Positions 17,701-50,935 of a stretch of DNA of 64,000 bases are shown piece by piece. Origin of the DNA: Omnitrophica bacterium RIFCSPLOWO2_12_FULL_50_11 (GTDB taxonomy: Bacteria > Omnitrophota > Omnitrophia > Omnitrophales > Danuiimicrobiaceae); the NCBI GenBank assembly GCA_001804315.1, contig MHFT01000024.1, positions 13,610 through 77,609 of the forward strand, given 5' to 3'. Position 1 is the first letter of the stretch; each line of letters opens with the position of its first letter. The notes beneath the pieces were generated by a model. That model did no database searches. It was not told where the DNA came from and saw nothing but the letters and a program-made list of their open reading frames with translations. Position numbers and translations under genes: made by a program.

Positions 17701-20700
17701 TAGGAGTAAGGCCAGCTGGGCGAGGGCAGTCCGTTTTGGCTTAATTATCCAAGTCGGTTTCTCGATCTGGTTTTTCGTCAAGCCGCGGCTTAGGATTCGA
17801 CTGGACCACTACGGGTCTGTCATGATGGTTGCTGCCGATACGGTGATTAGTTTGTTTACCCATCGTTTGTTGCTTCATTTGCTATATAGATCCGAGAGGT
17901 TATCTAAAGACGAGATTCGCGAAAAGATGAAAAACACATTTTGGCCTTCTTATGGGATGTTGGCGGGCGTGTGGGGCATTTTCAATTTAGGCATTTATGC
18001 TATTCCAAAAGATTGGGCCTTCGTTATTCCTATTATTTCATCGGTCGTGGCTTTTGTGAACAAAGTTATTTTGTCAGCTTATCTATATCGATCATCTTCC
18101 CGGACACTGATGATGAAGTTTGGGGGGACTTTCGGCTTGGTAGCTCCGATCATAAGCTTTGTTGCGATGGGTTCAGTCATCGGGCTTGACTTTTCATTTC
18201 GGCACGTGATTTTTGGGGGATTGAGTGGATGGTTAGTCGGAAGTGCGTTCGTTTACTTTGCAAAAAAATACTGGGGCTCAATCCAAACTGAAGGTGACGC
18301 GCTTCAAACGGGACCGGCATCTACAGGCAATGTCAATGATTTCCGGCCTGAGGTGCGGGGCAATGAGAAATTGAGTCGCACGCGGTGGGTCCGGCCATCT
18401 TGGATTGATTCGACCAGCTTGTTTTCACCGGCGGAAAGAAAACTCATTCGGGAACGCGGTCAATTGCTCAAGTTCGTGTACCCGCGCTTGAGCGAGAATG
18501 CGAAAAAAGTATTACTTTACCCTTCCTTCTTGCCCGTCTTTATGGGCGTCAAGCCGGCGTACCTGCGTATTACAGACCTTATTACTGGCCGCAAAGAACC
18601 GGATCCTATGATCCTTGCGAGAGAATTGAAAGATATTCCCAAGGCTTGGGATCAACTTGGGATAACGTTCAACGACATCAGAGCGATGTTAGTATTCGAT
18701 GTTTTTGATCAACTCAAGGCGCACATGAAACTTTTAAAAGACTTTGGTGTCCTGCCGCGCTATCCAAACGTCGACCTGATGAGCGAAGAGTGGAAAAGCT
18801 ATCAACCGAGCAAGTGGCAGGCGTTATCGGAAGAATTGGAATTGTTCATTGACGACTTAGACGACAATGTTGAGGTTAGTCAGAGTGCTGGGCATGTTCT
18901 TAACGGCATTGTCTTAGGTTATCCGGTGGCGGAAGTTCAGGCTCTAGGCGAATACATAACGGGCTTTTCGGTGAGTGTAACGCGGCTGTCGACAGAGTTT
19001 GAAGGCATTGAGCTCTTCGTTCGACTAGGAGAAAAGGGAGAAATTGCAGACGAAACGCATCGCTATCTCGCGCGGATGACCGATGCGCTTTATTATGCCT
19101 ATTCACTCCTACAGGAAAATGAGGACTTCGCGAGCATAGCTCAGGAACTCAACCTTCCCCCTAGAGTTCTTTCAGCCGAAGCTCCTGAGTCGATTGTCAG
19201 CCGTGGCGAACTTAGGCAAAGCGATTTTTTCAGGTCTGAGGTGCGGGGAAAAGAAAACGCTCAAGATTTACAATTGTATATTCGGCGTGCTCGCCATCCA
19301 GAGGTTCAAAGCGGAGAAACGAGTGATCAGGCGCCGGATTCTGCCGCCGTCAGCCTGTTGCCAATACCGCGAATTTCTTCTTTGAGCTCAGACCGCGTTT
19401 CTCCAAGTTCAGTCCGAGTATCACGGAGGTCCTTGGAGAGTTTTGACACGGCGTCTTCAAGGCGAGATGCTTTACCGTTGAGGACGTTGATTCGGAGTTC
19501 GATCGTATCTAGCCTTCGGCTGTTGCCGTGGACAGTTACCTCGAGCCGTTCCATCCTCGTATCGAGACCTGACTGGCCCTCAGCGAGGGTATCAAATTTC
19601 TTGTCCAATGCTTCCAGAAGTGTGCCCACTTCCGTGACTGAATATGAATCAGCCATTTTCTTTGGCTTGGTAGGATTACCTTTGCTCATTTCAAATCTCC
19701 TTGAGGATCAATTTGTGGGAACGGCAGGAATGGAAAGCAAGGTATCAGAGCGGCCACAAGATGTCAAGGTGCCTTTTGATGCCGGGCGCAAGACCGGAAT
19801 TGCGAACCCCAAAATCTTCTCCTCTCCCCTGTCGGGGGAGAGGATTTCCGCCAAAGGACGCGGCGGATCCGCCGCGCTGTATGGCGGAAAGGTGAGGGGG
19901 ACGAGTGAAAATAACTTGAACATCCACCCTCACCCAACCCTCTCCCTCCAATGGAGAGAGAGGGGAAAAGACTACAGCTACGGTCTTGTGACTTTTGATG
20001 CCGCCCGGCGTGCGGAGACCCGCGATCGAGTGCGGAATCCGGAGTTCAGGGTGCGGAGTGGACTTAAGTTCGGGAGTTCGCCCGTTCCGCACTCCGCACT
20101 CCGCATTTCCAACTCAAATCGGCGGGCCGAAGCGCGGGCAGAGAGCGATGGAGATCAACTTGTCAAACGATTCACAAGGTTAAGGGGGATGAATCTTTTG
20201 AGAGCTTTACCTGAATTAAACGGCGCGGTTCGACGGAAAGATTTGCCGGCTCGCACTTTGGAGAAGCTGAAAGAACAGCGCCGGATTAGGTATGTTCCTT
20301 ATGTACGCGGAGCGCTCAAAAGGCTCGCACGGAATTTAAGGAGCGAATTTCCAAAGGGGCGTGAGCTCATGAAAGCAGTTGCGGATGCATCAGGTGATCC
20401 TGAACTCTATGACCGTTCGGATGCCCTTCCGTTGCGAATTCTCCAGCAAATCGATCAACGAAAAGCGTGGGAGAGGGTGGCCTCTAACGACAACGTCGCA
20501 GAGCTTCTCCTCCGCGCGAAAGAAGCATTTGATCGGTATATGAGCACTGATGACGCATGGCTTTCAGAACATCTGCCTGAACTCAAGGATAAAAGGGCCG
20601 CCTACTTTTCGGCTGAATTTGCGGTTCCGCCGCTCCCGATATACACCGGCGGAATGGGGGTGCTGGCGGCTGATATCGTGGCGAGCGCGAGTGATCTGAG

Positions 20701-23700
20701 GATTCCGCTCACAGCGGTTGGACTTTTTTATCAGCTTGGCTACTTTCGGCAGCTCATCAGACCGTCTGGCGAGCAAGAGGAAGATAGAAGTTATGCCGGT
20801 ATCCGGAGAGATAAACGGACAGGACGGCCGCTTGATTTGCCGGTCGAAGATCCAAGAACAGGACATCCACTCATCCTGCAAATGAGAATGCCGACTGGAG
20901 GCCGTGTCGTCAAGGCAAAAGTCTGGAAGGCGCGGTTAGGAAAGGTCGATTTATTGCTTCTCGATACCAACTTGAAGGAGGAATGGGCAAACTGGAACAA
21001 CGCGTGGAATGAAGGTACAGACCTCTCTATCACAGAACAAGCTTATCGGGAACATTCGGGAACGCAGGAGCGCATGGAACAATATTTCGTGCTCGGCGTC
21101 GGCGGAATAAAGGCGCTAAAAGCATTAGGTCAAGAACCAGATGTCATCCATCTCAATGACGGCCATCCAGTATTTGCGGCCATTTCTGCTCTTGCCCAAG
21201 CGTTGGCGCGTGTGCCTCGCGCGATAGAAGATCCCAAGCTCCGGTTTGACGCAGCGCTTGAAGTAGTTCGAGCAAAGACGATCTTTACGACCCACACGCC
21301 GGTTCCTGCCGGAAATGAAGCGGTGCCGGAACATGTGATCCGCCCCTTCTTGGAGATACTTTTTCCTGGGGGAAAAGAAGTCGATCAATATGCGGTGGAT
21401 CGAATCCTCGAAATGGGACGGGCAGACGGCAACTTTAACATCACCAAATTTTCATTGCTGGTTTCAGGATTTCACAATGCCGTGAGCAAACTTCACGGCG
21501 AGGTAGCACGCAAGATGTGGCAAGGTCTTTACCCTGCTGTCCCGACAGAAGATGTTCCCATCAAAGCGATTGTCAATTCAGTTCACACGGGCGACGGCGA
21601 GCGGGAAGGAAAGTGGCAAGCTCCCCAAATTGCGGAACTGCTTCAAGAAACCTACCAGACTGCTGAAGTCCAGCGAGTAATGCACCTCGAACGAGACGAG
21701 ATGATGCGGTATCTTACGGATAACAAATGGCTGGACCAAAACGTTCCTGTTTCAACGCGAGAAAAGTTGTGGGCCGTCCATGTCGGTGTTACGAAGCTGC
21801 TCTTTAATGAGGCCGAGAAGCGGTTTACAAGGCAGGCCGCGCGGGGCGACGCGTCGCGGGAAGATTTGGCTTATCTGAAAAGTCTTGACCCACAGGCGCT
21901 CACGCTTGGTTATGCGAGGCGGTTTGCTGGGTATAAAAGGCCTGATCTCATTTTTCTAGATTTGGAGCGCTTAAGATCTATCGCCGCGAAGTCACAAGGG
22001 CTAGTACAAATCATATTTGCAGGAAAAGCTCATCCCAGAGATGACGTGGGCAAACGGTTAGTTGCTCGTGTAAATCAAATAGCGCGTGAGTTACGCAAGG
22101 AAAAGAAAATCAAAGTCATTTTCATCGAGGACTATGACGTAGCGCTGGCTCGATTGCTCGTTGCCGGAGTGCACGTTTGGCTTAACAATCCGATCCTGAA
22201 ACAAGAGGCGTCTGGAACAAGCGGACAGAAAGCACTTCTAAATGGGGTGCTGAATCTCACGATCCCCGATGGGTGGGCAGAGGGCATTGTAGACGGCGTC
22301 AACAGTTGGAAGTTTGGCGGAACGGACGTCGGGGACATCGATGCCAAGGATGCAGCTGCGCTTTACGACAAGTTGGAGAAGGAAGTGATTCCCACTTTTG
22401 ATAACAATCGGGAGGAATGGATCCGCATGATGATCCGGGGCATTCTTTCTATCGCGCATCATCACGGAGGCGAGCGGCTGCTTTTAGACTACGGCCGGGA
22501 ACTGTATGTGCCTGCTGTCAATTCAAGCGCGATGATCACGTCAGGCAACAATATTCTGACAAAGTTGCTTGCATACCGCGCGAAATCTAGCGTGGAAGAA
22601 GGAATGCTTTTTTATCTCCGGCTTCCACCCGAAGCCGAGGCAGAAAGGGTGTATTGGGCAAATAGAATTACGAACTGGGACTCTCAAGAAGATTTCGCGC
22701 TTGAGAAAATATCAGACGGCGTGTGGGCCATCGTGATTCCCGCAGAGAAAGTAGCTGGCGGTGATGTGGACTTTAAATTTATGGTATTTCCGGATCGAAA
22801 AGTCCACGGCGCGAGTAGGCCCATTTGGCTGCGGGGCGGATATCCTAACAGTTTGCGCAGCGGCATTTATCAGAATGGAAGCGTCAAAGTTGACATGGAC
22901 CACCCTTTGTTTCGTCGGGACGCAGCTCGAAAGCTGCTTGCTGCCATTCGCTCCGAAGCGCGGGATGATTGGACTGAGAGACTCGAAAACGTCATGAAGG
23001 AAATGTCCTACGTGCCGAAGTGGTTGAATGATCCAAAGTATTCGACACGTCCCGCTGTATCTCCCAAAGAGATCATTCTTCAGAGCGAAAAATTCGCCCG
23101 TTTCGCCGAAAGCCTCGCACCGGTTTTGACGCAAAAGCGTAGAGAAAAGTACGTCATGCGGCACGGGGTGAATGCATTGTCGCCTCTGAGATCTTTTGAT
23201 TTTCCTCCTCCCCTCCGGGAAGATTCCTACGGCGGCGCCGAAATCATCCTCAAAGAGGGATTTGACTGGAGCCGATTGACAGCCGGCGGGGTCATGGCCA
23301 ACATCGGGCCGTGGGAAGGCACCAAGATAACGGAAGCTGCCATCCTGGAATTTGATTTTGAAGGGGATGTCTTCACGAGCCTCGGCGCCGGCACTGACGT
23401 TAAGGATCAGCTGAGAAAATTTTTCGACACGAGCCTAGACGAAATCCATCTGCCCGAAGAACCACCTTTCTATCGGGGGCGGGGCGATCTTTTTAATTAT
23501 CTCCTCATCCTTTTATTACGTTTGTACGGAATCGACGGCGTGAATTTCGCTTATCCGGCCAAGGAATCCAACGAACCCAGATCTTTCGAATTTCTCGTGA
23601 CCCACCCCAAAGCCATCAGCCACATCCGGCTTGTTACCAGAAAACCCGGGCCAACGATTTCCAAGGAAAGAGAATCCGGCCCCCCCTCCGAAGTGCGTAC

Positions 23701-26700
23701 GGAGATTGTGCCGGAAGAGCTTGTCAAGGTTCGCTCACAGCTTGAGTATGAGCGAAGTGGCACTGGAGAAGTGTTGAATGTAAAGCCGGGAGGAATTCCT
23801 TCAGAATCGCGGAAACGAGGCCGGGAGTTTGCTTTTGACCTACGGCTGAATGCGGAGTCTCAAAACAGGAAAGCGGTCCAAAGAATCGCAGGCTTTCAGA
23901 AGAGGTTAGAAAAAATTGTCACTGCCGCCGAGCTTTTTATTCTTCCGAAAGATGCCTTCCACATTGCGTTAGGTGGCTTCTATCCTGGCGAAAGCTGGGA
24001 TTTGGATTCAAATGGGCCGATAGATTTACCAGAGGATGCGGTTGAGAACGCCCTAACCCTCTTCCAGCAAAAGCTCAATACCGCCTTCAAAGATTCGCCT
24101 GAACTCATCATTGCCATCATCGGCGCAAGGATGACAAATAATGGAACCGTGGTTCTTGATTTGAAAGAACATCATGGTGGAAAACTTGCCGGACTCCGTG
24201 GGCTGGCCTATTCCGCAATGGAGGAAGCGAACTGGCCGCCAGGAAAGTTTCGAATCAACCGCTCGAAGGATGGACAGGTAAGCGACAGCGGAATTGTGAC
24301 CTTGGCCCGGGTCATTCCTCACCCCGACAAAGATGAACCCTTGTCAAGCTCAGAGACGCTAATGCGAGTAGAAGGCAAAATTACCAAAATGGATCGTGAG
24401 CTGAAAAACAGTCCAATCACTCTCCGGTTCACTCAAGAAGATCAAGAAATAGCTCGGCTTGGAACGCGTGTTTTAATCGAAGAGATTGAGGGTTGGGCAT
24501 CCACAAATGATTTTTTGAAAGAGCGTGCGGATGAAATCGTCAAGCTTACTGCGAATGGTTTTGCCCACGAGACCTACGAAGCGGTCCGCCAAATAGAAGC
24601 AATGGATTGGGGAAGAAGAAAAGGGATTTATTCTCCTCAACAAGTTCAAAAAGATCTTCAAGGCGAACCTCCAGGAAGTCTATTGATGCTAAAGAGGCAA
24701 AGGCACAATCAAATACTTGCCACGCACGGAGAAAGGGTTGCACTTCTTGAGCTCGAATTGCGTCATTTGAGCGTCTTGACACTTTCACTCGCGTTAAAAG
24801 GAATCCCCATGGATGTGGCAAGGAGCAGCCATTATTACTATCTTTTACTTGAGATTGAGCGGTTCAAAAATTCCAACGGTATCGAGGGCCTTAACCCTGA
24901 GTTCATTTCTCCGGCGCAACAGATACTTGTCTTGAACGAGATAGCGAAATCTCAACTTCGTGGTGCACGGGAGCAACTTGGCAGACAAATCGCAGAGCAC
25001 TTAGACACCATTAGTTTTCGCTCGTCTGCCGAACGACTGTTACCCGAAATAGAAAAAATCATCGCGAGCTGGGAGGAACGTTATGTGAGAACAAAGCTTG
25101 AGCATGCTGTGTTGCAGGTAATTGGTCCCCTGAGACTAACTCGGGCGGCAGGAAAAAAGGTAAAAGATGAGATATCCCGTAGAAAAGTCGAGATCGTCGC
25201 ACACGTGGTGCGACAACTCACCCCAGACGTATTAAGTGGCCGTCGCATAACGACAAATAAGATTCGCGACGCCCTTAGAAGTAGCGGTCTCAGTTTTGAC
25301 CGTGTGAACCGGCTCAATCGTCCGGTGCGGTCCGGTATCACGAAGAAAGTCGACGAAATAGTGTTCAACATTGAAGAAAGCACGCACCGCTTGAAATTTC
25401 GTTCTGCGTTCCAAAACCCCCGCTCGGAAGCAAGGTGGCTCATAATGGCTGCGAAGATCGTTCTTATGGTCGCGGTTTTCGGTGCTCTGGGCTATTGGGC
25501 GCTCCGCGACACCAAAGATGATTGGGCCAAGGAGTTTAGTCAAATGACGGAACTTATTAAGGAGACCACCTCGACAGATGTTTTAATTGACATCGTGCGA
25601 GATACTCAAAATAACAGCATCCACCGCTGGTATGCGGTAAGACGATTAGTCGAAGCAGCCACAGTTAATGAATCTCTGAGAAAGGAAGTGGTGCCGGTGC
25701 TCATGGAAGAAATTACCCGCTATCTCAAAAAGGAGCTGGATCCACAGACGATGGTTGCGTCATGGGGGGTCGAGGTTGAGGCGATAGACGGTCTTGCCAA
25801 GTTCAAGGCGACGCGAGCAATCAACTTATTGAGACAAGTTTACACGGACGGCTCGGTCGATCAAACGGTGCGTGAAGCGGCGAGGGGAGCGGTAGAACAA
25901 TTGGAAGAGACACGATCCGGCCGCTCCAGAGTACAAGAAGGTCAATTGGACAGAGAAGAAAAATTGAAAACGTCTGGCCCGAGGAGCTCAAGATCCGAAA
26001 TTCGTAGTGAAATCGTCACTCCAAAGACGAAACTTGAAGAGAGGGGTACCCTTATTTTCCGCCGTATTCGGTATGAAATAGAGCAGATCATCCACGTGGC
26101 TGGAGATGATTTCATCCTGTTAAGAGCGAAAAAGAAGTACGCAGGGCAAAAGAGACAAAGGAGGGTTGACCGTCCCATTCATATTTCCAGAAGTAAGAGC
26201 GAGGTTACGAGCGGCCCTCTTTTACGAGTTTCCCTCAATGATGGAAACTGGAGTTACATTTCACCCAAGCGTGCTGAGGTGCGATCGCCGCAACAGAAGA
26301 AAAAAATAAAATACCCTGCCATTCATATACCCCTTGGAACGTATTTAAGGGTTTATTCTGGAATTTTTCTTCCGGCGATCTTTTTCATACTTAATGTATT
26401 AACCGTCGTAAAACTCGGGGCCCAGCTGGCAGGGGCGAAGATTTTGAATGGCCTCCCATTGGACGCTGTGATCACCGCATACGGGATTATTTTAGTCCCA
26501 GCCATCATCCATTTCGCAATGGAAAAATCTGTTTGGCTTCGGAAACGACAGCGTGCGCGAGAAGATCGGAGAAAAGCCGCTGGTATGCGCGGTGAGTCAC
26601 GCTCCCAGTCTGTTGAAGGCCGTGAACGTGCGAATGGAGATATTGGAGAACCAAAACAATCTGCAGTTCGAGACTCGGCGGACCGTGCGGAACTGCGAGC

Positions 26701-29700
26701 AGAATGGAAAGGTAAGAGTATTTTCGAAATTGGATTCGAAGCCAGTCTAATTCCTCGGGAGTTTAATTTGTTAGTGGATGCCGCGGTTAAGGGATTTAGC
26801 AATCTCAACGAGGCCGAACGAAATCAAGTGAAAAAGGTTCTTCGGAAGATTTTCGAAAAATTGGGCTTGCTCGAAACGGAAAAGCAAGAGGAGCGGCGCC
26901 GATTCCTGAGTCAAATCAGCGCGCTCATGATAAAGCTCAAAGCGCGGGGAAAGTTAGACAAATTAAAGTCAACGTTTCAAAAGAAATACTTGGACGAGAC
27001 ATCGTTCAAATTGGAGCGTGAGGTCAAAGTGTCAGGGCTTCAAACCGGTGATCAGGTACAGGAAGCAGCGGCGGAAATATCCGATGAAGAGCCTCTGGGC
27101 GCTTTGAGAAAATTGCTTGCTAAAAAACCCCGTGGGATTGAGGAAGCATATGCCTTGTCTATTTCACGAGGCGCATCTTTAGAAGAGGTTCGGAGGACAC
27201 TCAAAGAAGCTGGCTATGAGATGACGCAATGGAGACGCGACGGGTTGCTCGGCCTCTTTCGATTTAAACGAAATGTGTGGTTGAAAGTGCAAGAGCCCCG
27301 CCGGGCCGAGGTGCGGCACGAGCTGGTGCAGAGTGTGGAATTCGGAGTGCGAAGCAGACGCGAACGAGACGACTCGATCATTCCGTATTCCGCACTCTCC
27401 ATTCCGCACTCGGAAACACGGGCTGAGATGCGGGGACAATTGGAAGAAGATTGGAAAATAGCACGTTCTGCTGTGTGGTTTTTTTTGAGGAGAGGGGTTT
27501 ATTTTAAGCAGGACATCGAAGATGCTTTTCAGGATATCCATCTTGCGTTTGCGGAGGAGAGGCAGAAGGGAAAACCCTTATCAGAACTGGAGCTGAGAAA
27601 GATTGCTCTGGCCGCCCTTTCAAAACATGTGAGGGATTATCATAAGTACAAGCGTGTGGTTAGAGGGTTTCAAGCTGCATATAGATCGCTCGTCACAAAG
27701 CGCCGCGGCCCACGTCCTATGCTTGATGATGTCGATCTCTTGATACCTGAGGTAGGGGAAGAGACATTTGGGGACAGGCTTAGATCTCATTTCAGAAGGC
27801 GAGGGTGGTCCCAGCGACGAGGAGCGCGTGAATTAGGATTTTCGTACGGCTCCATTAAACCGTGGATATCAGGTAAGATTCCAAGCCCATTCTTTGTGAA
27901 ACGGCTTGCGACCGCACTGGACACGACGGTAAGTGAGTTGATGATAGGAATACCTAGGGAAGAGTTGCTCGCCATCAGGATTGAAGATGAAGAAAGTGGC
28001 GAATACAGAAAAATCTTGGGGTTGAAGGTCAAAGTTTTGAGATATGAAAAAGGATGGACAAAAAGCAGGCTTGCTCGCGAGGTGGGTATCAAGGATAACA
28101 CCATTATCAGACTGGAGGCAGGCGAACCTACGTTTCCCTATCGGTACATTGGAAAACTTGCCGAAACGCTGGGTACGACGATAGGCGATCTTATTGCAGG
28201 AATGCCTGACGAAAAAATAATGGCTATTCGTGTTTTTGACGAGAAAAGCGAGGAGCATCGTGAACTCTTTGGGCTCAAATTAAGAGTCCTCAGATATAGG
28301 CGAAGATTATCTCAGACCGGTTTCCAGGGCCAGAGTAGCACCTCCGCATGGGAAAGTGGGAAATGGTTCCCCTATCCCAGAAGCATGAAAATCATTGCGC
28401 GCAACTTAAAAACAACTGTGAGCGAACTTTTAGCCGGCATACCTGAAGAGAAGTTAATGAGCATGCGGGTCCGAGACGAGAAAAGCCGGGAAGCAAAACA
28501 AATTCTTGGATTAAAGATCAAAATTTTTAGATACAAACGGGGTTGGACCTTAACCGAACTTGCTCAAGAAATGCACGTGCATGTTGATACGGCTTCAGAT
28601 TGGGAAGCCGGACTGCACTTCCCTGCGATACGGCATTTCAAACAGCTAGCAGAACGACTGAATTCTACGGTGAGCCATCTTCTGGTGGGTTTGCCCGCAG
28701 AGGAGATAAAAACAAGATTAAAAAATGGCAATGACCCGGACTATGCCGACCTATTCAATCTCATGATCCGGGTTGTAAGATACGAGAACGGTTGGTCATC
28801 GGGCAAGCTCGGCGCTGAAGTTGGGATTCCTCGGGTAACCATCGATGGATGGTCATGGAGTCGAGCAGTTCCCGCCCCTAACAATTGGAAAAAATTGACT
28901 ACTGGAAAAGGGCACGTTCTTTTCGGTGACTACCTTCCTCCGTCACGGCCGAAACCCACAGAGCTTGATGAGACAGAACGTAAAGTTCATGAACTGTATC
29001 AACAACTAGGTCGATACAGTTCTGTCGCCAGAGCAATGGGATGGCAAGGAGCAGCAGGCGGCGTGAGGGCCCGGCACATATACCTGCGGTCTCTTCGGAA
29101 ATTGGGGGCTCAGAGCCGCGCTGAGGTGCGGAACGAACTGGTGCGGAATGCGGAATTCGGAGTGCGGAGTGGACGTCAACTCGAAGACTTGATCATTCCG
29201 CATTCCGCCCTCCCCATTCTGTACTCGGAACCACGGCCTGAACTGCGGATGGGGCTGGAAGAGATCGCGATCTATGAGGAAGACGTGGATCTCGAAGCGT
29301 ATCAGCGCGTGATGCGTTCTGCCGAGGTCCGTTTCTTAACGCGTGAGGAGGAAAAGATCCTTTTTCGTGCCCTTCATGCTCGAAATCTAAAAGGAGAAGA
29401 GCGCAGGACTCTCTTTGACTTTCTAGTCTTGAAATATCTTCCTAGGATTAAACGCGTGATCCGTAAACTCGTACGCGGTGAGGGGCGAGACAAGGACAAT
29501 ATGTATCAGGACGGTTCTTTGGGGTTAATGGAAGCAGTCTGTCGTTTTGATTACCGTCTCGGGACGAGGTTTGGTACATTTGCCGACTGGTGGATATGGG
29601 GCAAAATTCTAATCGGTTTGAATGACTTAGCCACTGGAAAGTTACCGTCTCAGGAGCGGGAACTCGTCCCCGCAATCTTGAGCTCTCAACAGGAATTAAC

Positions 29701-32700
29701 ACAGCTTTTCAAGCGTGAACCCACCATGGAGGAATTGGCCAAAGCGCTAGGGGAAGAGGAAAAAACGGTGATCCGCATCCTTTCCTTCTTCTCACGGGCA
29801 AAGTCCTTAGATGCCCCAGCAGGGAACGGTGAATTAAACCGCTATCAATTCCGCTCGGATCCAAAAGCGGAAACTCCGGAGGCGATCGCGGTTCGTGAGG
29901 AAGAACACCGCGAGATAGTCCCAGAGATTTCAAGAAGGCTAGCCCTTCTTTCCTCTTACCAGCAGCTCGTCATCAAACTGCGGTTTGGAATTGGCACGCA
30001 AAAAGAGGGCGGTTATACACTCGACGAGATTGGAACAATGCTGGGGGTCACAAGAGAGAACATCCGTCAGATCGAAGATCGTGCAATCAAAAATATGCGC
30101 AGCAACACTATTTCAGACGCCAAGACTCGTCCCGTATCCACTGAACATGGTGATGTTTACCTTGTGGAAGTCGTCGGCATAAAGCCGGATCATCCTGTTT
30201 TTGAGGACATGCGGCTCAAGCCACTTATCGAGATAAAAGAGCTTTACGAAAGGGGCTTTTTTGCCAATTTCATTCCGGCACAAAACTTGACGATGGGCAG
30301 GGTCAGAAATGTTAAGCCTCGTGTCGGCTACCGGAGACGCGTAGCGGCAACGGCCCGAGCAGCCGCTCACCGTGCTGAGGCGCGCAGTGGAAGCGTGAGG
30401 GAGTATGCGACGTGGGATCACTTCCATAGCTTGATTCATGTCCTCGCGATAGATAGCGAGGAAAAGAATCGGCTGGAAGCGTATAAGCGATTGAGAGAGC
30501 TAGCATTGTTTCAACCGTTCCACTTTGGCCTTGCTTTGGTGCGGCATGTCGGAGGTGAAATAGCTTCTTATGCTAAATCCATTTTGCTGGAGGTTGCGTG
30601 GGAAAACCCAGAGATCATGACTGGACCCATTGTGAGCTCACTTGAAGATCCGAGTCGGAATCCGCATGCTGAAGAACTTCTCGGCCAGTGGATTGACCTC
30701 ATCATCAAAAAGAAAGATCGAAACAAACTCAGTATTGTTGCCCGGCCTCTGATCGGCATCTTAGCTCTTGAGATAGCCCGCCCTGCTGCCGAAAGATTGA
30801 TTCAAAAAATTGCTCTTTTTGATCTCGGTGTAATTGTGAATCGATTCATGGGGGCACTCAAAGATCCCGCGAGGCGGGCGATCGTCGGGCACCTCCTTGT
30901 AGTCATTAGCCGTTATTCTGCTGGCGCAGCAAAGTTCGTCACCGAAACTGTCATTGAAAATCTTTATGACAATGAAATCGCCGAATACCTTATAGAAGTA
31001 CTTCTTGAGATTTCCAAGGATGCGGGCGAAAAGACGGTAAAACATATTTTGTGGTTATTAATGGATGTTTTGCATTTTGAGGATTACCTGAAGCGGGTTC
31101 GTTTTGTTCCGTTCAAGGAACGGCTAAGAGAAAATAAGGGAGATTTCCGTCGAAACGCAGCCGCGGTTTTATCGAGAATGCTGGTGACATATCCGGTCGA
31201 AACAGTGCACATTGTAGTCGGCCATGCTTTGAATCATGACGTCCGGCAGTACGCCGACGAAATCCTCGCTGAAATCGAGGATAAACAACCCCAGATTCTT
31301 ACTGATTCCTATGTGGCAGCTCAGGGCCGAATGAGTCCAAATGAATTTGTGGAAAGCGAGTTGATTCGTCTCGCTGCATCACATCGAGGGCCTATCCTCA
31401 ACTCGCTCATCAAATCGCTTAAGAGACAATCAAAAGCTCCGGCCTTAGTTTCGCTTCTGATAAAGATGGCGCGGTCTAACTCTGAGCTTTCAGGTTTCAT
31501 TCAAGAGCGCCTCAAGTCTGCGATGTCTGAGGTGCCGACGCATCGGAACCTCGATCGCTTCGGTCAACAAATTCTTGCCCAAATCCAGTCCCGCAATGAA
31601 GTGCGATTGGGATTAAATTTGGCCAAGGAGAGAAAAGTACTGCTCTCGGGAAATGCCAGCCGTGCGGAGGTTATTCAAAATGATGAAAACGGGCACAGCC
31701 CGATATTGAGGAATGACGATCGGACGGCTGACGCCAGGCTTGATGTAAACAAGGTGGTCGCCAGTTTGACGCACACGCCGAAAACCGGCCAATTCGAAGA
31801 CTCGACAAAGGTTTTGATACGGAATCGGAGTGATGCGGCTCATGGAGCAGGAGACGATTTAGAAAGTGACTTCGCTATGCTCGGTAGCAATAAGAGGAGG
31901 AGAAGTCCATTCGGTTCCAGCCGGATCTCGGGCAATGAAACCTTCTTCTTGAAGAATGTCCTTGAGCGTTCCCATTCTGGAACTTTCCTCAAGGAACAGC
32001 CGAACCGCTTCCATAAGCCTGCGCCGCGCATCGTCCACCGTATCTCCGCAGCTGGCAACGGACAATTCTGGGCAGACACTGACAAACGTCGGCCCCTCTC
32101 TAAAAATCAAGGAAGTGAATTCAATCTTTCTCATGGCATTCAAACTATAACACAGAACCGGGATGCCGTAAAGCAGCCCTCTTACCGCTCTGCAGTGCGT
32201 GAAAAATTCAGGGGAGAGGCGAGAGAGGAGAGGGAAGAGAAAAAGCGCTTACCTCTTACCGCTTCTCTCTCGCCTCTCACCACTCACCTCTCCCCTGATT
32301 CTTCCCGCCCCGCGGCACGCAAACGAGTGCGAAGCGGACATGAACTCGAAGACTCGATCATTCCGCATTCCAGACTTCCCAATCCGCACTCGGAAACACC
32401 GGCTGACGCGCGGGATCTCGTAGTTGCGCATGACGAATTGCCAGTGACGAAAGGTAGAAGACCTTGGCAGTACGAACGCGCGGATCTAAGGCACCGAGCG
32501 CGCTCTAGAGGTGTGAGTGCTTTTCGCGGCGGCGGCCCTGCCAATCGAGAAAGACAATTCCGAGAATTATTACAAGCAGGATCACAGCAAGAAACACAAC
32601 ATTCGCTGTTGCTCCATCCATTTTTGTTTCCTCTCGTCAGGATTGATCCAGAGAATGAAGGCAAAAGCAACAAGATAAATTATAACCCCGGCCACCAGAA

Positions 32701-35700
32701 GAAACAAGACAGGTCCGACTTGTTGGGCGCATCCGACTTCATACAGTTGTCATCGCGAGGCCAGCATCCCAAGAATGGGCTGAAGCAATACGATGCCTCC
32801 GTCATTACGAGGAAGCGTAGGGGCAATGACGAAGTAATCTCGGATGCGAGATTACTTCGTCATCCCTTGGGGTTGCTTCCTCGCAATGACGGTCAGGATG
32901 CAATTGCTTCGTCAACGCCTGGTCCGCTGCCTCGCGATAACGTTGGCATTGCTGCATCGAGCGGGATACGCGCCGCGGTGCAGAGTGGACAGGAACTGGA
33001 AGACTTGATCATTCCGCATTCCGCACTCCCCATTCCGCACTTGGAAACACGGCCTGAGGTGCGGAGCGGGGACAAATCACGAGGGGATGCGAGCGCTCCT
33101 CCTGACCGTGTCAAACAATGGGAAGAGAATATCGGTGCCGTGAAAAGGATGTTGAGCAAGTTTTTTCAGGAAGGCAATGACCTAAATTATGCCTTGCTTT
33201 TGTTTGGAAACATCCTCGTGAACGATCCCGTTAGAATCGATTACATGGAGAAATTGATGAATGCTTTGAAGAAACAAAAGGGGCCTCGTAGAGACAAAAA
33301 CGCAAGACACGGCGTAGAGCTTACGCCTGACGATCTTAGAGATTTGCTCGATTGGGTAATCGGAGACGTCGCCTATTTAAGCTCTCCGCCTAATAGGAAG
33401 GACGACGGACCTGTTATGTGGATGTGGGTTCCATACAGAGACCTACCCGAAGAACTCATAACCGAAATTGTGAAATATCGAACGCCTAAAAAGAATTTTG
33501 ATGATGCGGCTGACGCATGGAGAGCATATCAGGCGCAGGGTGATAAGAAGCTAATCGGATTTAAGTCATTCTATGATAAGCACTTTAAAAAAAGAGGGGC
33601 GATGGCGTCTGGCGATCAGGCTTTTGATTCGTATTCGTTTCATTTTTTACCTACGAGAAAGCATGATGATTTGAAACTAGGGATTGACACTGACTGGGCC
33701 GGCAGAGGATTGGGCAGAGGATTGGTTGCGTTCAGGGACGTACCTCGAGGTCGAAAACTTGTTGTAAATCGGCTCCGGCAATCTGAACAGGTTTATGGAA
33801 TGTCTCAACATTTGTTTTACATTGAATTAGAGCACGTCAAAAATCGGCTTATTGTTCACACCCACCAACACGGCGGTAGTCGGACGAGTCAATTGAGGAC
33901 TTCCGATCGTGAGTTGTATGATTACTTGAAACATGTACCGGATAAAGCCTTCGCTTTGTTAATAGACCGACTGGATGAGGTACTTGCAGCTTTAGGATGG
34001 TCGGCAGCCGATCAAATCCAGGATTTTGAGATTGTCTCAGCCAGCAAGGTCGCTTATGAATGGTCCACGGTCTCGGCCTCAACGGTTATGACAGCTTATA
34101 TGGATTTTCCACAGCGCCTTGGATTTCATATGGTAGAACGTAAGCCCAATGAGATCCGGAATGCGCCAGGCGACCAAGCCATGTGGAGAGAAAGCGTGTG
34201 GTACTGGAGCCGGCCGCTTGCGGATATGAAGAAACCTCCGAAAGTTCAGATCGAGACGCCGTCTTCTTTCCGTCCGGAAGTGAGAATCCTGGAGACGCGG
34301 GCTGAGGTGCGGGAAACAAAAGTAAGAAGCACGAAGCTGGAAGCAGGAGCGCAAAAGTCTCTCGCTTCAGGCCTCGCGTTTCACGCCGGCGGCAAAGCCG
34401 CCTCCCGCTCTGAAATGCGGATAAATCCGAGGAGCACTGAGGAATTGCGCGAACAGTTGATGACTCTTGTAAGGGAGATCGTCATTCTGCTTGATCTTCT
34501 CACGGTAGATCCCCGTCGGGAGAACCGGAAGGAACTTGAAACCGAGATTACGGAGCTGAGAAGGCAGCTCAGTGAACAAAAAGAGTTTGTGAACGAAGAT
34601 CAACATCAAATCTTTGACAAGCTTGTGGGAGAAGTTAAATCGCTCATTGATTTAGTATCGGCTTCCAAGCTGCCTCTTTCTACTCAATTGATACGAGAAC
34701 ATACTCAGCGTATTTACAGTAACATCCAAGAGCTGGAATTTAAGCCTACGGGGGAACAAAAAGATGCAATAAGTGCGGAAACAGAACGCTTCGAGCTCGC
34801 GAAGTTGATTAGAGCTAAGGATGTCGAGGGTATTGCTGACATGCTTTCGAGAAGCGACGAGGTGCCAATAAAGGTAGATGCGATCAGGGCACTGGGTCTA
34901 TTGAAGGCCAGTCAATATGCAGATTTGATCGTTCCATACTTAACCTTTTTCACACCACCCTTCGGCGAGGGTGTGCGGCTGACTGCAATTACTGCATTAA
35001 GAAATTTAAATGCAAAACAATATCTAACTGAGATTGCGAAGAAATTCACAGATCCCACACTAAGCGTTCGCAGTAGGGCAGCCGGAGTGATTGGGGCATT
35101 CGGGGATCCAACATACATCCCCCAACTGAAGGAACTATTGAATGACAAATCCGCCGCGGTGCGGCTTGCAGCGGCAAAAGCTTTGCAGAAATTCGGAGTG
35201 GACATTCCTGAAGAATACCGCTCCGAAGCGCGGAGCAATGATGATGTCTTTATGAGGATCGCAGCTTCTTTGCCAGAGGAGTGGCGGGAAAAAATTCAAG
35301 CAGTGCAGACAAAACCAGCTAACAGGGATGTTTTCCCCTCGTGGATACAAGCGCTGAATGAAGCGGAAGCGACGCGCCTACACTCCATTCTAACGGATCG
35401 CGTGCCAGTAGATGTAATTGAGTCCTTTTTCCTGAACAGCCCGCACTTTCTTGCAAGCGATCCCGATCAGCGTCATCAAGTGGCAGTTTCGATTGCAGAG
35501 ACGCTAGAGGATGTACGTCGGCTTTTAAGATCTTGGATTGAAGAGCTGGATCGCGACCCGCATGCGCGACGTCCTGCAGCGATCCCTGCGCGCCAGATGA
35601 CCACCCCTGCTGAGACAAGAGGTGTCCGGCCGCAAGAAGAACGAGAAGAGTGGGTATCAGAGGAGGAAGCTGCCAGACGCGCGCGCTTCATTGAGTGGGC

Positions 35701-37675
35701 TCGAGATGAAATGGGCATAGAGGCGACCAATTATGACGAGCTTGTCCGTGCGATGACGGAACGTTTCAGCTATGTTGTTCACGTGAATGCAGCTAGCATT
35801 GCGCGTACGCTTCCTCCACGCACGAGTTGGAACGACTTTGAGGATTTGGAGATCGCGGGCGTTTTGGGTCTGATCGATGCACTTGGCAAATACGATCCTG
35901 CTCGAGGCGTTCAGTTCGACTCGTATGCAAAGCATAGAGTAAGGGGAGCTATCTTGGATGAATTGAGAAAAATAGATCCTGAAAAGAGAGAAGTGAGGGA
36001 GCTTGCAAACGCTCTTCAAGAGGAGGGACGAACTCGTTCCACATCAGAAGAAGTGGTGGGGTCCTATGATGTCACACGCGCTGCCGTGTTAAGGGCTCTG
36101 CAAGTTGCTCGCGGCGGAGACATATCACTAGATAAAAAATTGTTTGAGACGGATACTGGAAAGAGCGTCACGATAAAGGATAGGCTTCTAAGCAACAGTC
36201 CGACTGGAGATTTTGTAGCAGAGCAGCGCGACTTAATCGAATATGTGATGCGGCCGTTGAGCCCCCGGGAGAAAGCGATATTGATTTTATATTACCACGG
36301 GAATTTGCCGATGAAGCAGGTCGGAGAAATTTTGGGTGTTAGCGAATCACGAATCTCTCAGATATTGAAAGATCTTCCTAAGCGGATAAAAGAACGAATG
36401 CATGAGTTTTTTGAGAGAGGAACTCTTATGCGGCTAGACACATTCGCGGCAAGAAGTCGATATGCGAGGCTAGCTACCGGCCTTCGTCGCAGGGACGTTA
36501 CGCAACAGCTCTACAGGAACGTCGAGAAAGGCTTGATGAGGCCGAGAGAGGAAACGTTCGTAAAATTAGCAGATGCTTATGGCGTTAGCATACAGTGGCT
36601 GAAGACCGGCCACAACATTCCTCCCTTTTTGAGTCCGGAGCATTTGGAAGTTGGTGCCAAAGCAATTGTGGCGATTGAAGAAGAAAGAATAAGAATGGCG
36701 CTTCCGATCGGCATCTTGGCGCACGAGGCAAAGGTATCTCGTCGCGCCTACCTATTTTACGTAGCGGGTAAAGTGATTCCGACCTCTGACGTCCTAAGCC
36801 GCCTTAGGAGTGCTCTTGAGACAGCAAAACCTGGCGGCAAGTATCCGACTCGAGAATCTGTCTTGGAGGGACTAGCAGCACGTGAGGCAAAGAAGTGGCC
36901 AAGTCATGTTAGGGCGCTCCAGATTGGTGAACATAAAGATGCGGCACTTCTGTATGCGGCCAGAAAATTTGGAATTGAACTACCTCGGCCGCCGAGAACT
37001 GGCGAACATCCGAAGGCAGAAAAAAGCCGCTCCAAAGACTCCAAGAAACCTCGTTCTGAAACGAGGGTCATTCCCACTTTCTCCAGCTTGCCGGAAGCTG
37101 AGCCACAATCGGCAGTCGAAACCGAAAATCGTTTGATCGTGACGCTTGGGGAACTTCGAATAAGCGGCGAGCTGCGGGCGAAATTGAAAGAAGCAATTCA
37201 GGTGAATCAAGCCAACCCAACGTTTATCCTGGTGATTGTCGATACGGAATTTAGACACGAGCTTCTAGCTGAGCGAGAGCTTTTTGGGCTTTTTGGGAGG
37301 GATTTCTTTATTCGTTATCCCGTGGAGCTTCACGGACGGGAGAGTCTTAAAATTTCGACCGAAATGTCGCCGTGGGTGGTACTCAATCGCGCGATTGGTG
37401 CGGCGCGTAAAGAAGTCGGTCTTAATGGTTCTTTCTTTTCACCCCAAGTGATTGCGTCGGGGAGCCACGATGTTCTCTCTCGTCTCGGCCGGCGTGATAC
37501 GCCACTCCTTGTAGCCGAACCGCTCCTATTCGATTTGGCGCGCCGCCTATTCGACCTTAAAGATGCTCAGGCGTGGTTCCGCCAGGCAGCTGGCCCCGAG
37601 GGAATTCTCCATCCGTGGGCGGAACACCTGCGTACGTTAATGCTGACTCGACAAGCGCAGGTCGCCGCTGCATAA
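14798..37675 (+). CDS. Giant mosaic ORF (7625 aa, 22.9 kb, stop-free). Order of parts: signal peptide, ChaN/TIKI-like domain, TM segments, GT35 alpha-glucan phosphorylase, 5x HTH_XRE, sigma-70 module, ARM/HEAT-like helical regions, FliA-like sigma module, HTH_XRE
   Basis: A single frame is open for 22,878 nt with many recognisable domains in that frame (listed as separate features); GTG start with GGAGG and a consensus promoter. It also contains in-frame palindromic repeats and nested antisense genes (see findings). Whether it is translated as one polypeptide is unknown. Confidence 0.75.
   Translation: [7625 protein letters not shown]
14990..16140 (+). other. N-terminal ChaN/TIKI/TraB-like domain of the giant ORF (paralogous to the 752..3859 protein)
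   Basis: [38 protein letters not shown] ... [31 protein letters not shown], preceded by a signal-like [15 protein letters not shown]. Confidence 0.4.
16211..16324. repeat. Palindromic family-A repeat (GTCATCCTGAGG ... GAAGGATC ... CCTCAGGATGAC) inserted in-frame in the giant ORF
   Basis: Same family as intergenic copies at 7975-8110, 43025-43100, 47908-48017, 50560-50935, 62118-62215 and 62922-63012. Confidence 0.7.
17017..17301 (-). CDS. Small coiled-coil protein gene nested antisense in the giant ORF (copy 1 of a duplicated module)
   Basis: On the minus strand, TTGACA-17-TACAGT then AAGGAGATTTGAA-ATG; MSKGNPTKPKKRADSYTVTEVGTLIEDL... followed by heptad repeats (LSAVEERLSAVEDRLFFVENRLSGVES). 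Confidence 0.5.
   Translation of the reverse strand: MSKGNPTKPKKRADSYTVTEVGTLIEDLRGQFRAVVEGVGPLPNRFSAVEERLSAVEDRLFFVENRLSGVESAVRVALPGLSKRVACLESKIGI
17500..18280 (+). other. Polytopic transmembrane region of the giant ORF (about 8 predicted helices); an additional helix pair lies at 16500-16690
   Basis: Hydrophobic runs [111 protein letters not shown]. Confidence 0.5.
19327..19689 (-). CDS. Paralogous small coiled-coil protein gene nested antisense in the giant ORF (copy 2)
   Basis: Same conserved promoter/RBS/N-terminus (MSKGNPTKPKKMADSYSVTEVGTLLEAL...) on a duplicated approximately 168-nt segment (19625..19792 versus 17225..17392); diverged coiled-coil body of 120 aa. Confidence 0.5.
   Translation of the reverse strand: MSKGNPTKPKKMADSYSVTEVGTLLEALDKKFDTLAEGQSGLDTRMERLEVTVHGNSRRLDTIELRINVLNGKASRLEDAVSKLSKDLRDTRTELGETRSELKEEIRGIGNRLTAAESGA
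19815..19970. repeat. Family-D repeat (TTTCCGCCAAA..GGCGGATCCGCC..TATGGCGGAA with flanking G/C-rich palindromes) in-frame in the giant ORF
   Basis: A homologous intergenic copy lies at 39150-39370. Confidence 0.6.
20190..22560 (+). other. glgP: Complete alpha-glucan (glycogen/maltodextrin) phosphorylase module, GT35, embedded in the giant ORF
   Basis: [51 protein letters not shown] (GT35 N-terminal hallmark); [37 protein letters not shown]; PLP-lysine motif [14 protein letters not shown] with the Lys retained. An internal AAGGGGG-ATG sits at about 20195 at the module start. Confidence 0.8.
27775..28890 (+). other. Tandem array of five HTH_XRE (Cro/C1-type) DNA-binding domains inside the giant ORF
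   Basis: Five roughly 80-aa repeats of the pattern (L/M)[20 protein letters not shown]...LGLKxKxxRYxxGWTxxxLAxExGxxxxTxxxWExG...KLAExLxTTVSxLLxG. Confidence 0.65.
29112..29252. repeat. Family-C composite palindromic element (CTGAGGTGCGG direct repeats flanking a tgcggaatgcggaattcgg / ccgcattccgc hairpin) in-frame in the giant ORF
   Basis: Near-identical copies at 20000-20140, 27296-27440, 32336-32425 (half) and 32975-33070, each translated as ...[44 protein letters not shown].... Confidence 0.7.
29330..30110 (+). other. Complete sigma-70 family sigma factor module (regions 1.2, 2, 3 and 4) embedded in the giant ORF
   Basis: [17 protein letters not shown]..., region 2 [33 protein letters not shown] (compare [33 protein letters not shown]), region 3 [21 protein letters not shown], region 4 [30 protein letters not shown]. 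Confidence 0.75.
31613..31843 (-). CDS. hicA: HicA-family mRNA interferase toxin nested antisense inside the giant ORF
   Basis: YQNLCRVFELAGFRRVRQTGDHLVYIKPGVSRPIVIPQYRAVPVFIILNNLRTAGISREQYFSLL is a YcfA/HicA dsRBD-like toxin with the catalytic His in the G(D/S)H motif; 76 aa. Confidence 0.7.
   Translation of the reverse strand: MSRITPIPYQNLCRVFELAGFRRVRQTGDHLVYIKPGVSRPIVIPQYRAVPVFIILNNLRTAGISREQYFSLLGQI
31859..32143 (-). CDS. hicB: HicB-family antitoxin (UPF0150 fold) nested antisense inside the giant ORF
   Basis: FTSLIFREGPTFVSVCPELSVASCGDTVDDARRRLMEAVRLFLEE matches the HicB N-terminal domain signature (partial RNase-H-like fold, GxTxEEA motif region). Lies 15 nt upstream of hicA on the same strand. 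Confidence 0.65.
   Translation of the reverse strand: MNAMRKIEFTSLIFREGPTFVSVCPELSVASCGDTVDDARRRLMEAVRLFLEESSRMGTLKDILQEEGFIARDPAGTEWTSPPLIATEHSEVTF
32747..32892. repeat. Palindromic family-B repeat (GTCAT(T/C)GCGAGG ... GAAGCAATCTCG/CGAGATTGCTTC ... CCTCGCAATGAC) in-frame in the giant ORF
   Basis: Same family at 6545-6640, 61378-61570 and 62625-62772. Translated copies give ...ARQQSKRCRSNLEVVRLLRR... / ...[13 protein letters not shown]... peptides. Confidence 0.7.
34840..35210 (+). other. HEAT/PBS-lyase-type repeats in the giant ORF
   Basis: Repeated approximately 30-aa units [23 protein letters not shown] / [75 protein letters not shown]. Confidence 0.55.
35700..36410 (+). other. Complete FliA/sigma-28-like sigma factor module embedded in the giant ORF, followed at about 36440-36620 by another HTH_XRE domain
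   Basis: [45 protein letters not shown] (compare FliA LLQAGGIGLLNAVERYDALQGTAFTTYAVQRIRGAMLDELRSRD) and region 4 [48 protein letters not shown]; then [44 protein letters not shown]. Confidence 0.75.
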
Positions 37676-37976: not shown

Positions 37977-38260
37977 AAACGGGGCGCAAAAGACAACCCC
38001 TGTGGTACAAATGGACAAGCCCATTTGCACCACAGCCTCTTCGAGGGCATTTCTCATTGGCGATGAGAAATGCGGGTTAGAGAAGCACGTGAAGATATTA
38101 AGTCCGGGATGACGAAGTCTCTCAAAGAAGTTTTCGGGCGATGAAGCGCCAATCTTACACCATCCTTGTCTTAGATTCCTGGTAGTTCATGGCAATGAGG
38201 AACCGAGGGCGAATTTTCGGTACGTACCGAAAATCGAGTTGTCGGACGTAAGGACTAATT

Positions 38261-43014: not shown

Positions 43015-43133
43015 TAAAAGCTACGTCATCCTGAGTCCCGCCTTTGGCGGGACGAAGGATCTAGGTCGGGATTCTTCGGGCTTCGCCCTCAGAATGACGG
43101 TGTTGTGAGTGGCACTCAGAACGGAGGTACCTC

Positions 43134-47862: not shown

Positions 47863-48023
47863 ACCATCGCAGAGTTGTTTAATCTAGGCTTTAACAACTC
47901 TGCGATGGTTCATCCTGAAGGAGGCCGTAGGCCGACTGAAGGATCCAGGTTGGGATTCTTCGCCCCGCACCTTCTCAGACACTGCTGAACCAAAACGTGC
48001 GGGGCTCAGAATGACGTGACTAA

Positions 48024-50544: not shown

Positions 50545-50935
50545 TTACTTTGGGGGTTGGGAAACTCCCCGAAGGATCAGATCCTTCAGTCGCCCTACGG
50601 GCTCCTTCAGGATGAGCAGCCGGGTGTACCTCGCAACTCCCCGACGGCTCAGTTATTTTGATCATGTTGGTCGGACTTCCTCTAAGCCTTGCTAAAGTTG
50701 ATATTTACGGGCCCGCCTTGAACTCCCTCTTATTGGCAGGTACACTTAGTTGAGTGGTCGGGGTCTTTCCCCCCGACCACTCATCCTGAGCGAAGGCCCG
50801 CATTTGGGGCCGGAGCGAAGGATCTCATTGATGAGGTGAATGAGATCCTTCAGTCGCCCTACGGGCTCCTTCAGGATGAGCCGTCGGGTGTGCTCGAAAC
50901 TCCCCGACGGCTCACTTAGTTCACAGAGGAGCGTG
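50545..50935. repeat. Cluster of family-A palindromic repeats (two to three copies) in the intergenic region
   Basis: gatccttcagtcgccctacgggctccttcaggatgagc occurs twice, with CCCCGACGGCTCA ends. Confidence 0.6.

Follow-up and report, generated by a model that had tools for sequence, protein, structure and literature searches.

Genes and features of the locus

The stretch of DNA analysed here (the window) comprises 64,000 nucleotides (nt) of contig MHFT01000024.1 from Omnitrophica bacterium RIFCSPLOWO2_12_FULL_50_11. A giant open reading frame (ORF) of 7,625 amino acids (aa) lies at 14798..37675 of the window, on the forward strand, as do all genes and domains of the window located below, and consists of a head, about 15 cargo modules with spacers, and a tail. 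This report concerns one of its modules, in which a sigma domain of the FliA/WhiG type is fused to an XRE (Cro/C1) helix-turn-helix (HTH) domain. An earlier note on this DNA had placed the pair at the C-terminal end of the ORF; it does lie in the end region, but as the penultimate unit, with a conserved tail of 202 aa (37067..37675) behind it.

The whole sigma-XRE cassette covers 35234-37066 (aa 6813-7423), that is, 611 aa between the short border motifs RSEAR (35219..35233) and RSETR (37052..37066). It begins with an orphan extension of about 140 aa (35234..35653) that has no Pfam match and for which searches gave no homologue. The sigma domain, regions 2 to 4, follows at 35759..36400 (TIGR02479 profile and Protein Data Bank (PDB) matches), with region 2 at 35846-35977 and region 4 at 36257-36376. 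The fused XRE HTH domain (Pfam HTH_3, PF01381) occupies 36428..36613. Further downstream are a second HTH-like segment (36689..36820), which aligns with and is conserved in the homologues P0028 and P0030 and has no Pfam match of its own, and a mini-domain of about 50 aa (36845..36991) that matches aa 1047-1102 of the orthologous giant protein P0027. Both sigma peptides quoted in the earlier note were recovered in frame 0 of the giant ORF. No stop codon separates the module from its neighbours, and no in-frame ATG, GTG or TTG with a Shine-Dalgarno-like sequence was found ahead of it, which bears out the note's claim that the module belongs to the ORF.

An open reading frame under selection

Frame 0 contains no stop in its 7,625 codons, against 408 in frame 1 and 400 in frame 2. 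The 1,357 spacer codons that look non-coding likewise have 0 stops in this frame, compared with 39 and 78 when read in the other two. A coding-potential model trained on the remaining window genes gave positive values for frame 0 along most of the ORF, broken up by non-coding-like stretches. In comparison with P0027, both the modules and a spacer rich in serine and arginine (S/R-rich) showed an excess of third-position substitutions in frame 0; one long spacer is nearly neutral in its evolution, yet open. A palindromic repeat element at 16211-16324, absent from P0027, is carried in frame.

An independent assembly of a second strain (European Nucleotide Archive contig L001) encodes the same 7,625-aa product with 12 single-nucleotide differences and an intact ORF. 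An assembly artefact was rejected, given this intact copy and the divergent syntenic orthologue. All 12 differences fall within 380 nt of the tail module (37267-37645; 7 synonymous and 5 non-synonymous), and the other 20 kb compared are identical; the clustering suggests a local recombination patch. A chain of separate genes and an alternative genetic code were likewise rejected, as all modules share one frame with 0 standard stops over 22.9 kb. Neighbouring genes terminate at the usual stops, from which it follows that standard code 11 holds and that the giant ORF is peculiar to this locus. Given the stop counts, the third-position excess, the in-frame repeat element and the intact second strain, the frame is held open by selection, and translation almost certainly runs through all of it as one chain.

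A crude hydropathy scan gave about 10 hydrophobic segments, all up to aa 3900. Two different spacers carry a direct repeat of 167 nt (17223-17389 and 19611-19777, aa ~810-865 and ~1605-1660; 89% identical) that encodes ...VPTSVT(V/E)YESA(L/I)FFGLVGLPLLISNLLED.... The S/R-rich spacer around this repeat is 77% identical to the orthologue and, because of its third-position substitution excess, appears protein-constrained despite its low complexity.

Identity of the sigma domain

Support from hidden Markov models was obtained for both halves of the module, as the earlier note had proposed. The Pfam families Sigma70_r2 (37 bits, gathering score 24), Sigma70_r4_2 (25.8 bits, gathering score 25.7) and HTH_3 (52.9 bits, gathering score 23, so that the domain belongs to the XRE group) all matched. 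Among NCBIfam families the best was TIGR02479 (FliA_WhiG; E 9.6e-42, 143.2 bits, profile positions 3-223 of 224), followed by the WhiG and FliA equivalogs, while SigB/F/G and RpoD scored far lower. The closest solved structures are those of WhiG (6pfv) and FliA (9wsm, 6pmi, 1rp3). The sigma motifs YAxxRxRGAILDELR and LGVSESRISQI are intact in comparison with homologues less than 40% identical. Identity to the usual FliA and WhiG proteins is only about 30-41% and the NCBIfam score lies below the cutoff, so the note's wording that the regions match FliA/WhiG closely was too strong.

Like FliA and WhiG, the module has regions 2, 3 and 4 in order, a full-length profile match, and conserved region 2.x and 4.2 motifs. 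Unlike those proteins, which are encoded by free-standing genes of about 240-280 aa, it is embedded in a 7,625-aa ORF, carries C-terminal XRE HTH domains and is preceded by the 140-aa orphan extension. The profile and motif evidence identifies it as a real sigma factor of group 3 in the sigma-28 (FliA/WhiG) lineage, complete but divergent, and not a close FliA. An AlphaFold2 model of the sigma-XRE unit had a mean confidence (pLDDT) of 67, too low to read domain packing.

A family of sigma-XRE proteins

With the last 1,200 residues of the giant ORF as query, HMMER was run exhaustively over 1.84 billion representatives, and three proteins with the sigma-XRE domain order were recovered: P0028 (440 aa, 38% identity), P0029 (430 aa, 39% identity) and P0030 (351 aa), the last of which is cut by a contig end, yet is terminated by a stop after the module. 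The remaining matches were ordinary FliA proteins of 240-300 aa. P0029 is a free-standing gene that follows a HepT/MNT pair on contig L007, where toxin-antitoxin genes (HepT/MNT and PhdYeFM) flank it. The sigma-XRE junction, LMRLDxxxxRxRYARLAxG, is nearly invariant in the window module and the three homologues.

The family was defined here by sigma regions 2-4, the junction LMRL-x5-R-x-RYARLA-x-G and an XRE HTH; the window module has all of these, with alignments at 37-38% identity and invariant junction residues. Because this architecture is also found in free-standing genes that encode about 430-440 aa, the two domains owe their pairing to inheritance and not to chance adjacency, and the unit is a rare protein family in its own right that elsewhere is a free-standing gene. 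The Cro/C1 HTH that the earlier note saw directly behind the sigma module is therefore real, but it is part of a conserved fusion and not an additional neighbour. The orphan extension (35234-35653) is not part of these standalone homologues, and no relative of it was detected.

Alignment searches of Joint Genome Institute (JGI) metagenomes found no further sigma-XRE or tail members, and viral contigs gave just one weak region-2 match. Two apparent fusions from the first homologue search (P0004 and P0005) were set aside as uninformative, being spurious ORFs of high GC content. The mini-domain, roughly R[DE]SVLxELxARExxGW...HKDxxLYxAARxFxxxLPR, turns up again in several unrelated giant proteins, and in P0031 and P0073 no other stretch matches as well; P0073 carries a related motif, LKEREEKGWANNP, five times.

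Head, cargo and tail modules

The head (14798..16180, the first ~460 residues) combines an N-terminal signal or anchor with a hydrolase-like fold of the TraB/EreA/ChaN/Tiki/RRSP type, with invariant His and Glu residues. Its standalone homologues are about 500 aa long and have N-termini that read like Sec signal peptides. In 80 head loci from the Genome Taxonomy Database (GTDB), nearly all labelled Omnitrophota, the head stands alone in about 38; in about 42 it forms the start of an ORF whose length ranges from 1,000 to more than 3,800 aa. The head domain is a marker of many long ORFs in Omnitrophota. Apart from the head, Pfam scans of the giant ORF returned no recognisable protease domain.

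A first sigma cassette, similar to RpoD and other group-1/2 factors, lies at 29249..30385 and is bounded by RPELR and RAEAR (379 aa). It has Pfam matches to regions 2, 3 and 4, scores 122.6 bits against TIGR02393 (RpoD_Cterm; below cutoff), and has a 36%-identical copy in P0027. Just upstream, one motif-bounded module (about 27700-29000, aa ~4300-4700) consists of five diverged XRE-type HTH repeats in tandem, each about 79 aa long. An alpha-glucan phosphorylase (TIGR02094, 516 bits, profile 2-599 of 600) fills a segment of 942 aa between RAEAR and RSEAR, and a HEAT-repeat cassette (34421..35233; Pfam HEAT_2, 56 bits), which has no counterpart in P0027, directly precedes the sigma-XRE cassette. 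A weak Pfam match to T4 RegB in the module at aa 1188-1483 (E 0.033) was treated as noise.

The tail is 78% identical to the C-terminus of P0027 and 31% identical to that of a 2,784-aa head-bearing ORF on contig L015; a search of GTDB genomes found no more tail members. Cargo in the relatives includes DnaJ and a sigma-70-like module (P0027), a phosphoenolpyruvate (PEP)-utilising enzyme (L014), and HPr with a pseudouridine synthase (L015). The modules are whole proteins with free-standing homologues, strung between head and tail, and the ORF resembles a polyprotein in that it holds several complete proteins in a single frame with a recurring junction site.

Comparison with the syntenic orthologue

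P0027 (4,646 aa; contigs L008 and L009) is a syntenic orthologue: as in the window, the genes behind it are mqnA and an M24 peptidase. On L008 a PhdYeFM/ParE toxin-antitoxin pair (14262-14776) is inserted between giant ORF and mqnA. P0027 keeps the head, the tail and the junction motif but has no sigma-XRE cassette, and in BLAST comparisons the shared modules appear in a different order. A stretch of about 945 aa (aa 6497-7442), consisting of the HEAT module and the whole sigma-XRE cassette, has no equivalent there, except for a match of ~58 residues to the mini-domain that is placed elsewhere in P0027.

Homology ends at the junction motifs RPEVR and RAEVR (34271..34312). The break falls exactly after the motif (marked by a slash), with ...IETPSSFRPEVR/ILETRAEVR... 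in the window against ...IETPSSFRAEVR/DIGLESW... in P0027, and homology resumes in the tail. The sigma-XRE unit is, by this comparison, an exchangeable cassette that is carried in frame. Serial gene capture, which the earlier note raised for regulatory genes, is supported by the existence of free-standing homologues and by the break of homology at the junction motif. The restriction to regulators did not hold: with phosphorylase, HPr, pseudouridine synthase and DnaJ among the cargo, capture appears to concern genes in general and not regulators in particular.

The junction motif

The giant ORF contains 24 copies of the pattern R-[ASP]-E-[VMLAIT]-R, against 0.38 expected by shuffling (~60-fold), and P0027 contains 19. 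The other window genes (11,126 aa) have one copy (RAEAR), located in a paralogous head-bearing ORF at 752-3859. In relatives down to 33% identity (contigs L013, L014 and L015), RAEVR, RSELR or RSEFR follows the head, and on L015 RSEFR stands just before the tail, in a position equivalent to RSETR at 37052-37066. Segments delimited by the motif coincide with recognisable proteins (phosphorylase, RpoD-like sigma, sigma-XRE).

Just the five motif residues are conserved and the flanking residues are unconstrained. Variation has a period of three: in the codons for R, E and R, bases one and two never change and base three does so freely, with GAA and GAG near 50:50. The substitutions (A/S/P and V/A/L/M/I/T) are conservative. 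Because the flanks are free and synonymous positions vary, selection probably acts at the level of the peptide. On contig L010 a stop closes the head gene and the module behind it uses another frame; the Met of that module aligns with the residue right after the motif (ILSELM/TIRDSFWL versus NRAELR/VIRESFEWL). The RpoD-like module likewise starts RPELR/M. A role of the motif as a Shine-Dalgarno sequence (GAGGTG) was rejected, since half of the copies use GAA and such sequences precede no more than about one in three genes of the window.

Repeats and mobile-like elements

Palindromic repeat families that resemble repetitive extragenic palindromes (REP) or miniature inverted-repeat transposable elements (MITE), e.g., GTCATCCTGAGG...GAAGGATC and CGTCATTGCGAGG...CGAAGCAATC, were found in the window at 6545-6640, 43026-43078, 47903-47962, 50576-50891 and 61438-63018. 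Inside the giant ORF they occur at 16211-16324, 19820-19900 and 32746-32951, in frame and stop-free; the spacer repeats of the ORF are also present in true intergenic regions of the window.

A second element of 90-134 nt, built on the heptamers GCGGAAT/ATTCCGC, has five copies (20006-20140, 27299-27436, 29114-29251, 32279-32416 and 32930-33067). It is an imperfect palindrome that can form a hairpin, and at the first three sites it amounts to an in-frame insert of 38-39 codons with R-x-E-x-R on both sides. The 3' half of the junction motif resembles the GTGCGGA heptamer of these hairpin elements. No covariation was detected for the hairpins among the few (five) copies.

A perfect inverted repeat of 39 nt (38042-38080 and 55664-55702) has arms 17.6 kb apart; they bracket a region that runs from mqnA to where the Tad pilus locus begins. 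The arms may be copies of one small palindromic element, or they may mark the ends of a segment that can invert or move. On contig L010 a REP-associated Y1 transposase gene (PF01797, 1338-1856) lies directly upstream of the head gene (1849-3276) and overlaps it.

Neighbouring genes

The rest of the window holds housekeeping genes of usual size with usual stops (IlvD, GcvT, MutY, transketolase, ThyA, DHFR), together with a GGDEF-EAL protein and the Tad pilus locus near the giant ORF. Proteins encoded next to the giant ORF are identical to the OGX063xx entries of Omnitrophica bacterium RIFCSPLOWO2_12_FULL_50_11. The paralogous head-bearing ORF (752-3859) encodes 1,035 aa, of which the first ~540 are the head paralogue (24% identity to the head of the giant ORF; E 2e-16 and 1e-13). 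It ends in ...Q-x-x-AAA, as does the giant ORF. Its C-terminal half was considered as a tail homologue, and no relation was detectable (hhalign probability 0.1). No flagellar genes, FlgM, RsiG or any anti-sigma gene were seen among the annotated genes of the window, and no integrase among its annotated parts. A search for hidden RNA genes that included the odd spacers gave no match to tRNA, tmRNA or Rfam families in the window. PADLOC returned just generic sigma or HTH matches (including MzaA and RmrA), with no sign of a defence system.

Proposed mechanism

The reading that we favour, and rate at slightly less than an even chance, is that genes have been captured into a polyprotein-like ORF and that cleavage at the motif releases the sigma factor. 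The whole ORF would first be translated as one chain, a step that is well supported. The chain would then be cut at RSEAR (35219-35233) and RSETR (37052-37066), yielding a cytoplasmic sigma-XRE protein of about 68 kDa. Once freed, this protein would bind core RNA polymerase, its activity gated by processing and not by a promoter of its own, and the XRE domains would add or restrict DNA targeting. In this reading, cassettes are gained, lost and shuffled at the junctions that carry the motif.

Several observations weigh against this proposal. The TIGR02479 score of 143.2 bits is below the curated cutoff of 189.6. The sigma-28 promoter consensus TAAA-N15-GCCGATAA, a genome search for which had been put forward in the earlier note as a check, was not enriched in the 64-kb window (5 matches versus 4.8 expected). 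We know of no protease with R-[AS]-E-x-R specificity, and the giant ORF has no recognisable protease domain of its own outside the head. Peptidases (Tiki, RRSP) do occur in the fold family of the head, but so do esterases and haem binders; moreover, the head is probably periplasmic, because its standalone homologues show Sec-like N-termini, whereas sigma factors must be cytoplasmic. For this reason a protease role was not assigned to it. After cleavage the sigma factor would still carry the 140-aa orphan extension. The motif is restricted to the nearest relatives, being absent from about 40 long head-bearing ORFs that are more distant. There is also a bias at the nucleotide level: AGR codons are avoided in the motif (P 4e-4 and 3e-5), with nearly every Arg encoded by CGN, and codon 4 mostly ends in G. 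Because of this bias, the motif may be partly a DNA or RNA feature.

In a more general form, the proposal would give some Omnitrophota natural polyproteins built as in-frame cassette arrays, with entire genes, two sigma classes among them, captured between the TraB-like head and the tail; the codon-phased joints would serve both as recombination breakpoints and as release sites, and processing, not a promoter and stop codon of its own, would control the supply of the sigma-28-like-XRE factor. This extension is tentative and we regard it as rather unlikely.

Alternative explanations

The giant ORF may instead encode an uncleaved, membrane-anchored megaprotein of ~840 kDa, in which the sigma and XRE domains are tethered or sequestered in cis, or serve as a scaffold that keeps RNA polymerase or DNA close to the membrane, and the motif is a tolerated linker. 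Documented giant proteins of Omnitrophota with multiple Pfam domains and transmembrane helices are usually read as single proteins. The confinement of hydrophobic segments to the part up to aa 3900 would place the distal half on one side of the membrane, Pfam scans identified no dedicated protease, and the majority of distant head-bearing long ORFs do without the delimiter. The modules, however, are complete and independently folding, with free-standing homologues. A sigma factor wraps extensively around core RNA polymerase, which is hard to square with long stretches of other protein at either end of it. The motif, whose R, E and R never vary, is ~60-fold enriched and conserved at borders down to 33% identity, which also goes beyond a neutral linker. 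On balance we consider the uncleaved form unlikely, while giving it serious weight.

Alternatively, the motif may chiefly be a joint in the nucleic acid, a 15-mer (CGY-GCY-GAR-NYG-CGR) that acts as a recombination or insertion site related to the REP-like heptamers. That homology to the orthologue breaks exactly at the motif, with module order shuffled, speaks for such a joint, as do the preference for CGN and for G in codon 4, the likeness of the 3' half to GTGCGGA with hairpin elements sitting between two motif copies, and the Y1 transposase gene that adjoins the head gene on L010. Period-three variation and conservative substitutions, on the other hand, fit selection on a peptide and would be unusual for a DNA site, and the hairpins have no covariation support. 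A primarily nucleic-acid role is in our judgement distinctly unlikely, and so, to the same degree, is its corollary that the peptide is a by-product of in-frame cassette exchange with the modules released by other means; a nucleic-acid joint can also coexist with cleavage.

Separate translation of the sigma-XRE protein, from an internal start on a long mRNA or from a processed sub-transcript with the missing stops incidental, is very unlikely. The missing Shine-Dalgarno sequence is weak evidence in this matter, because just a third or so of the window's genes have one; the module at aa 3550 (MAAKIV...) has AGGTG seven bases before an ATG that lies three residues past the motif, and an ATG starts the XRE segment (MRLDTF) after a GAGAGAGGA stretch. 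Near the sigma start, however, there is no ATG, GTG or TTG with a Shine-Dalgarno-like sequence, and the codon at the P0028 start position is ATT in the window. Ribosomes arriving from upstream would in any case read through an internal start, and the selection that keeps 22.9 kb, including spacers, free of stops would be left without explanation.

Finally, a non-functional passenger, that is, a decaying captured gene carried along because stops are purged from the ORF, would agree with the score below the FliA/WhiG cutoff, the absence of the cassette from the sister locus P0027 and the low-confidence AlphaFold2 model, but is highly improbable given that the TIGR02479 profile is covered end to end, that the sigma motifs and the family-specific sigma-XRE junction have stayed intact relative to homologues less than 40% identical, and that coding potential in frame 0 is positive throughout.

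Comparison with known systems

The pro-sigmaE and pro-sigmaK factors of Bacillus subtilis have pro-sequences of ~20-30 residues, which are removed by SpoIIGA or SpoIVFB. By analogy, the sigma factor of the window would lie in a larger inactive precursor and become active upon membrane-linked proteolysis; unlike theirs, which sits on a dedicated gene, its "pro" part would be thousands of unrelated residues. Viral polyproteins and the RgpA/Kgp/HagA precursors of Porphyromonas gingivalis, the latter cut after Arg or Lys, share with the giant ORF a single frame with several functional units and a short recurring site ending in Arg. They differ in having related products and a cis protease, whereas the cargo here is heterogeneous, of housekeeping and regulatory types, and varies between orthologous loci.

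Integron gene cassettes are comparable in that variable captured genes stand in one orientation with repeated junction elements, including imperfect palindromes of 90-134 nt, and in that content differs between close relatives. In contrast to integrons, the window has one stop-free frame, a codon-phased 15-mer junction and no integrase in its annotated parts.

Giant proteins of Omnitrophota have been described as Archaeovorin and dockerin types by West-Roberts et al. 2023 (bioRxiv 10.1101/2023.11.21.568195), who raised post-translational cleavage by C39 or S8 peptidases as a possibility. Nielsen & Lui 2026 (bioRxiv 10.64898/2026.06.07.730766) catalogued proteins from a threshold of 10,000 aa upwards, with a "multi-enzyme" giant class in Omnitrophota and a regulatory Pfam module. 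The window ORF belongs to the same phylum and is similar in that many unrelated Pfams tile one polypeptide with transmembrane segments, in its HEAT, sugar-metabolism and regulatory content, and in the nearby Tad pilus locus. It differs in its length of 7,625 aa, which is under the catalogue threshold, and in that Pfam scans found no C39 or S8 peptidase in it. The words "sigma" and "polyprotein" are absent from the text of both papers, and "HTH", "TraB", "Tiki" and "linker" from the text of Nielsen & Lui 2026.

Significance

The giant-ORF phenomenon in Omnitrophota is already known. The sigma-XRE cassette, the R-[AS]-E-x-R delimiter, the organisation into head, cargo and tail, and the turnover of cargo at the motif appear to be new. 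Whether the giants of this phylum act as one chain or as cut pieces is a question raised in the literature on giant proteins, and a sigma factor is a stringent test of processing, because a compact protein must engage core RNA polymerase. Because two classes of sigma factor share one frame with other complete cytoplasmic proteins, processing is the natural hypothesis, for which the border motifs offer concrete, mutable candidate cleavage sites. We know of no established bacterial precedent for gene exchange inside one reading frame; the comparison with the orthologue suggests a way in which genes may be assembled and exchanged within one.

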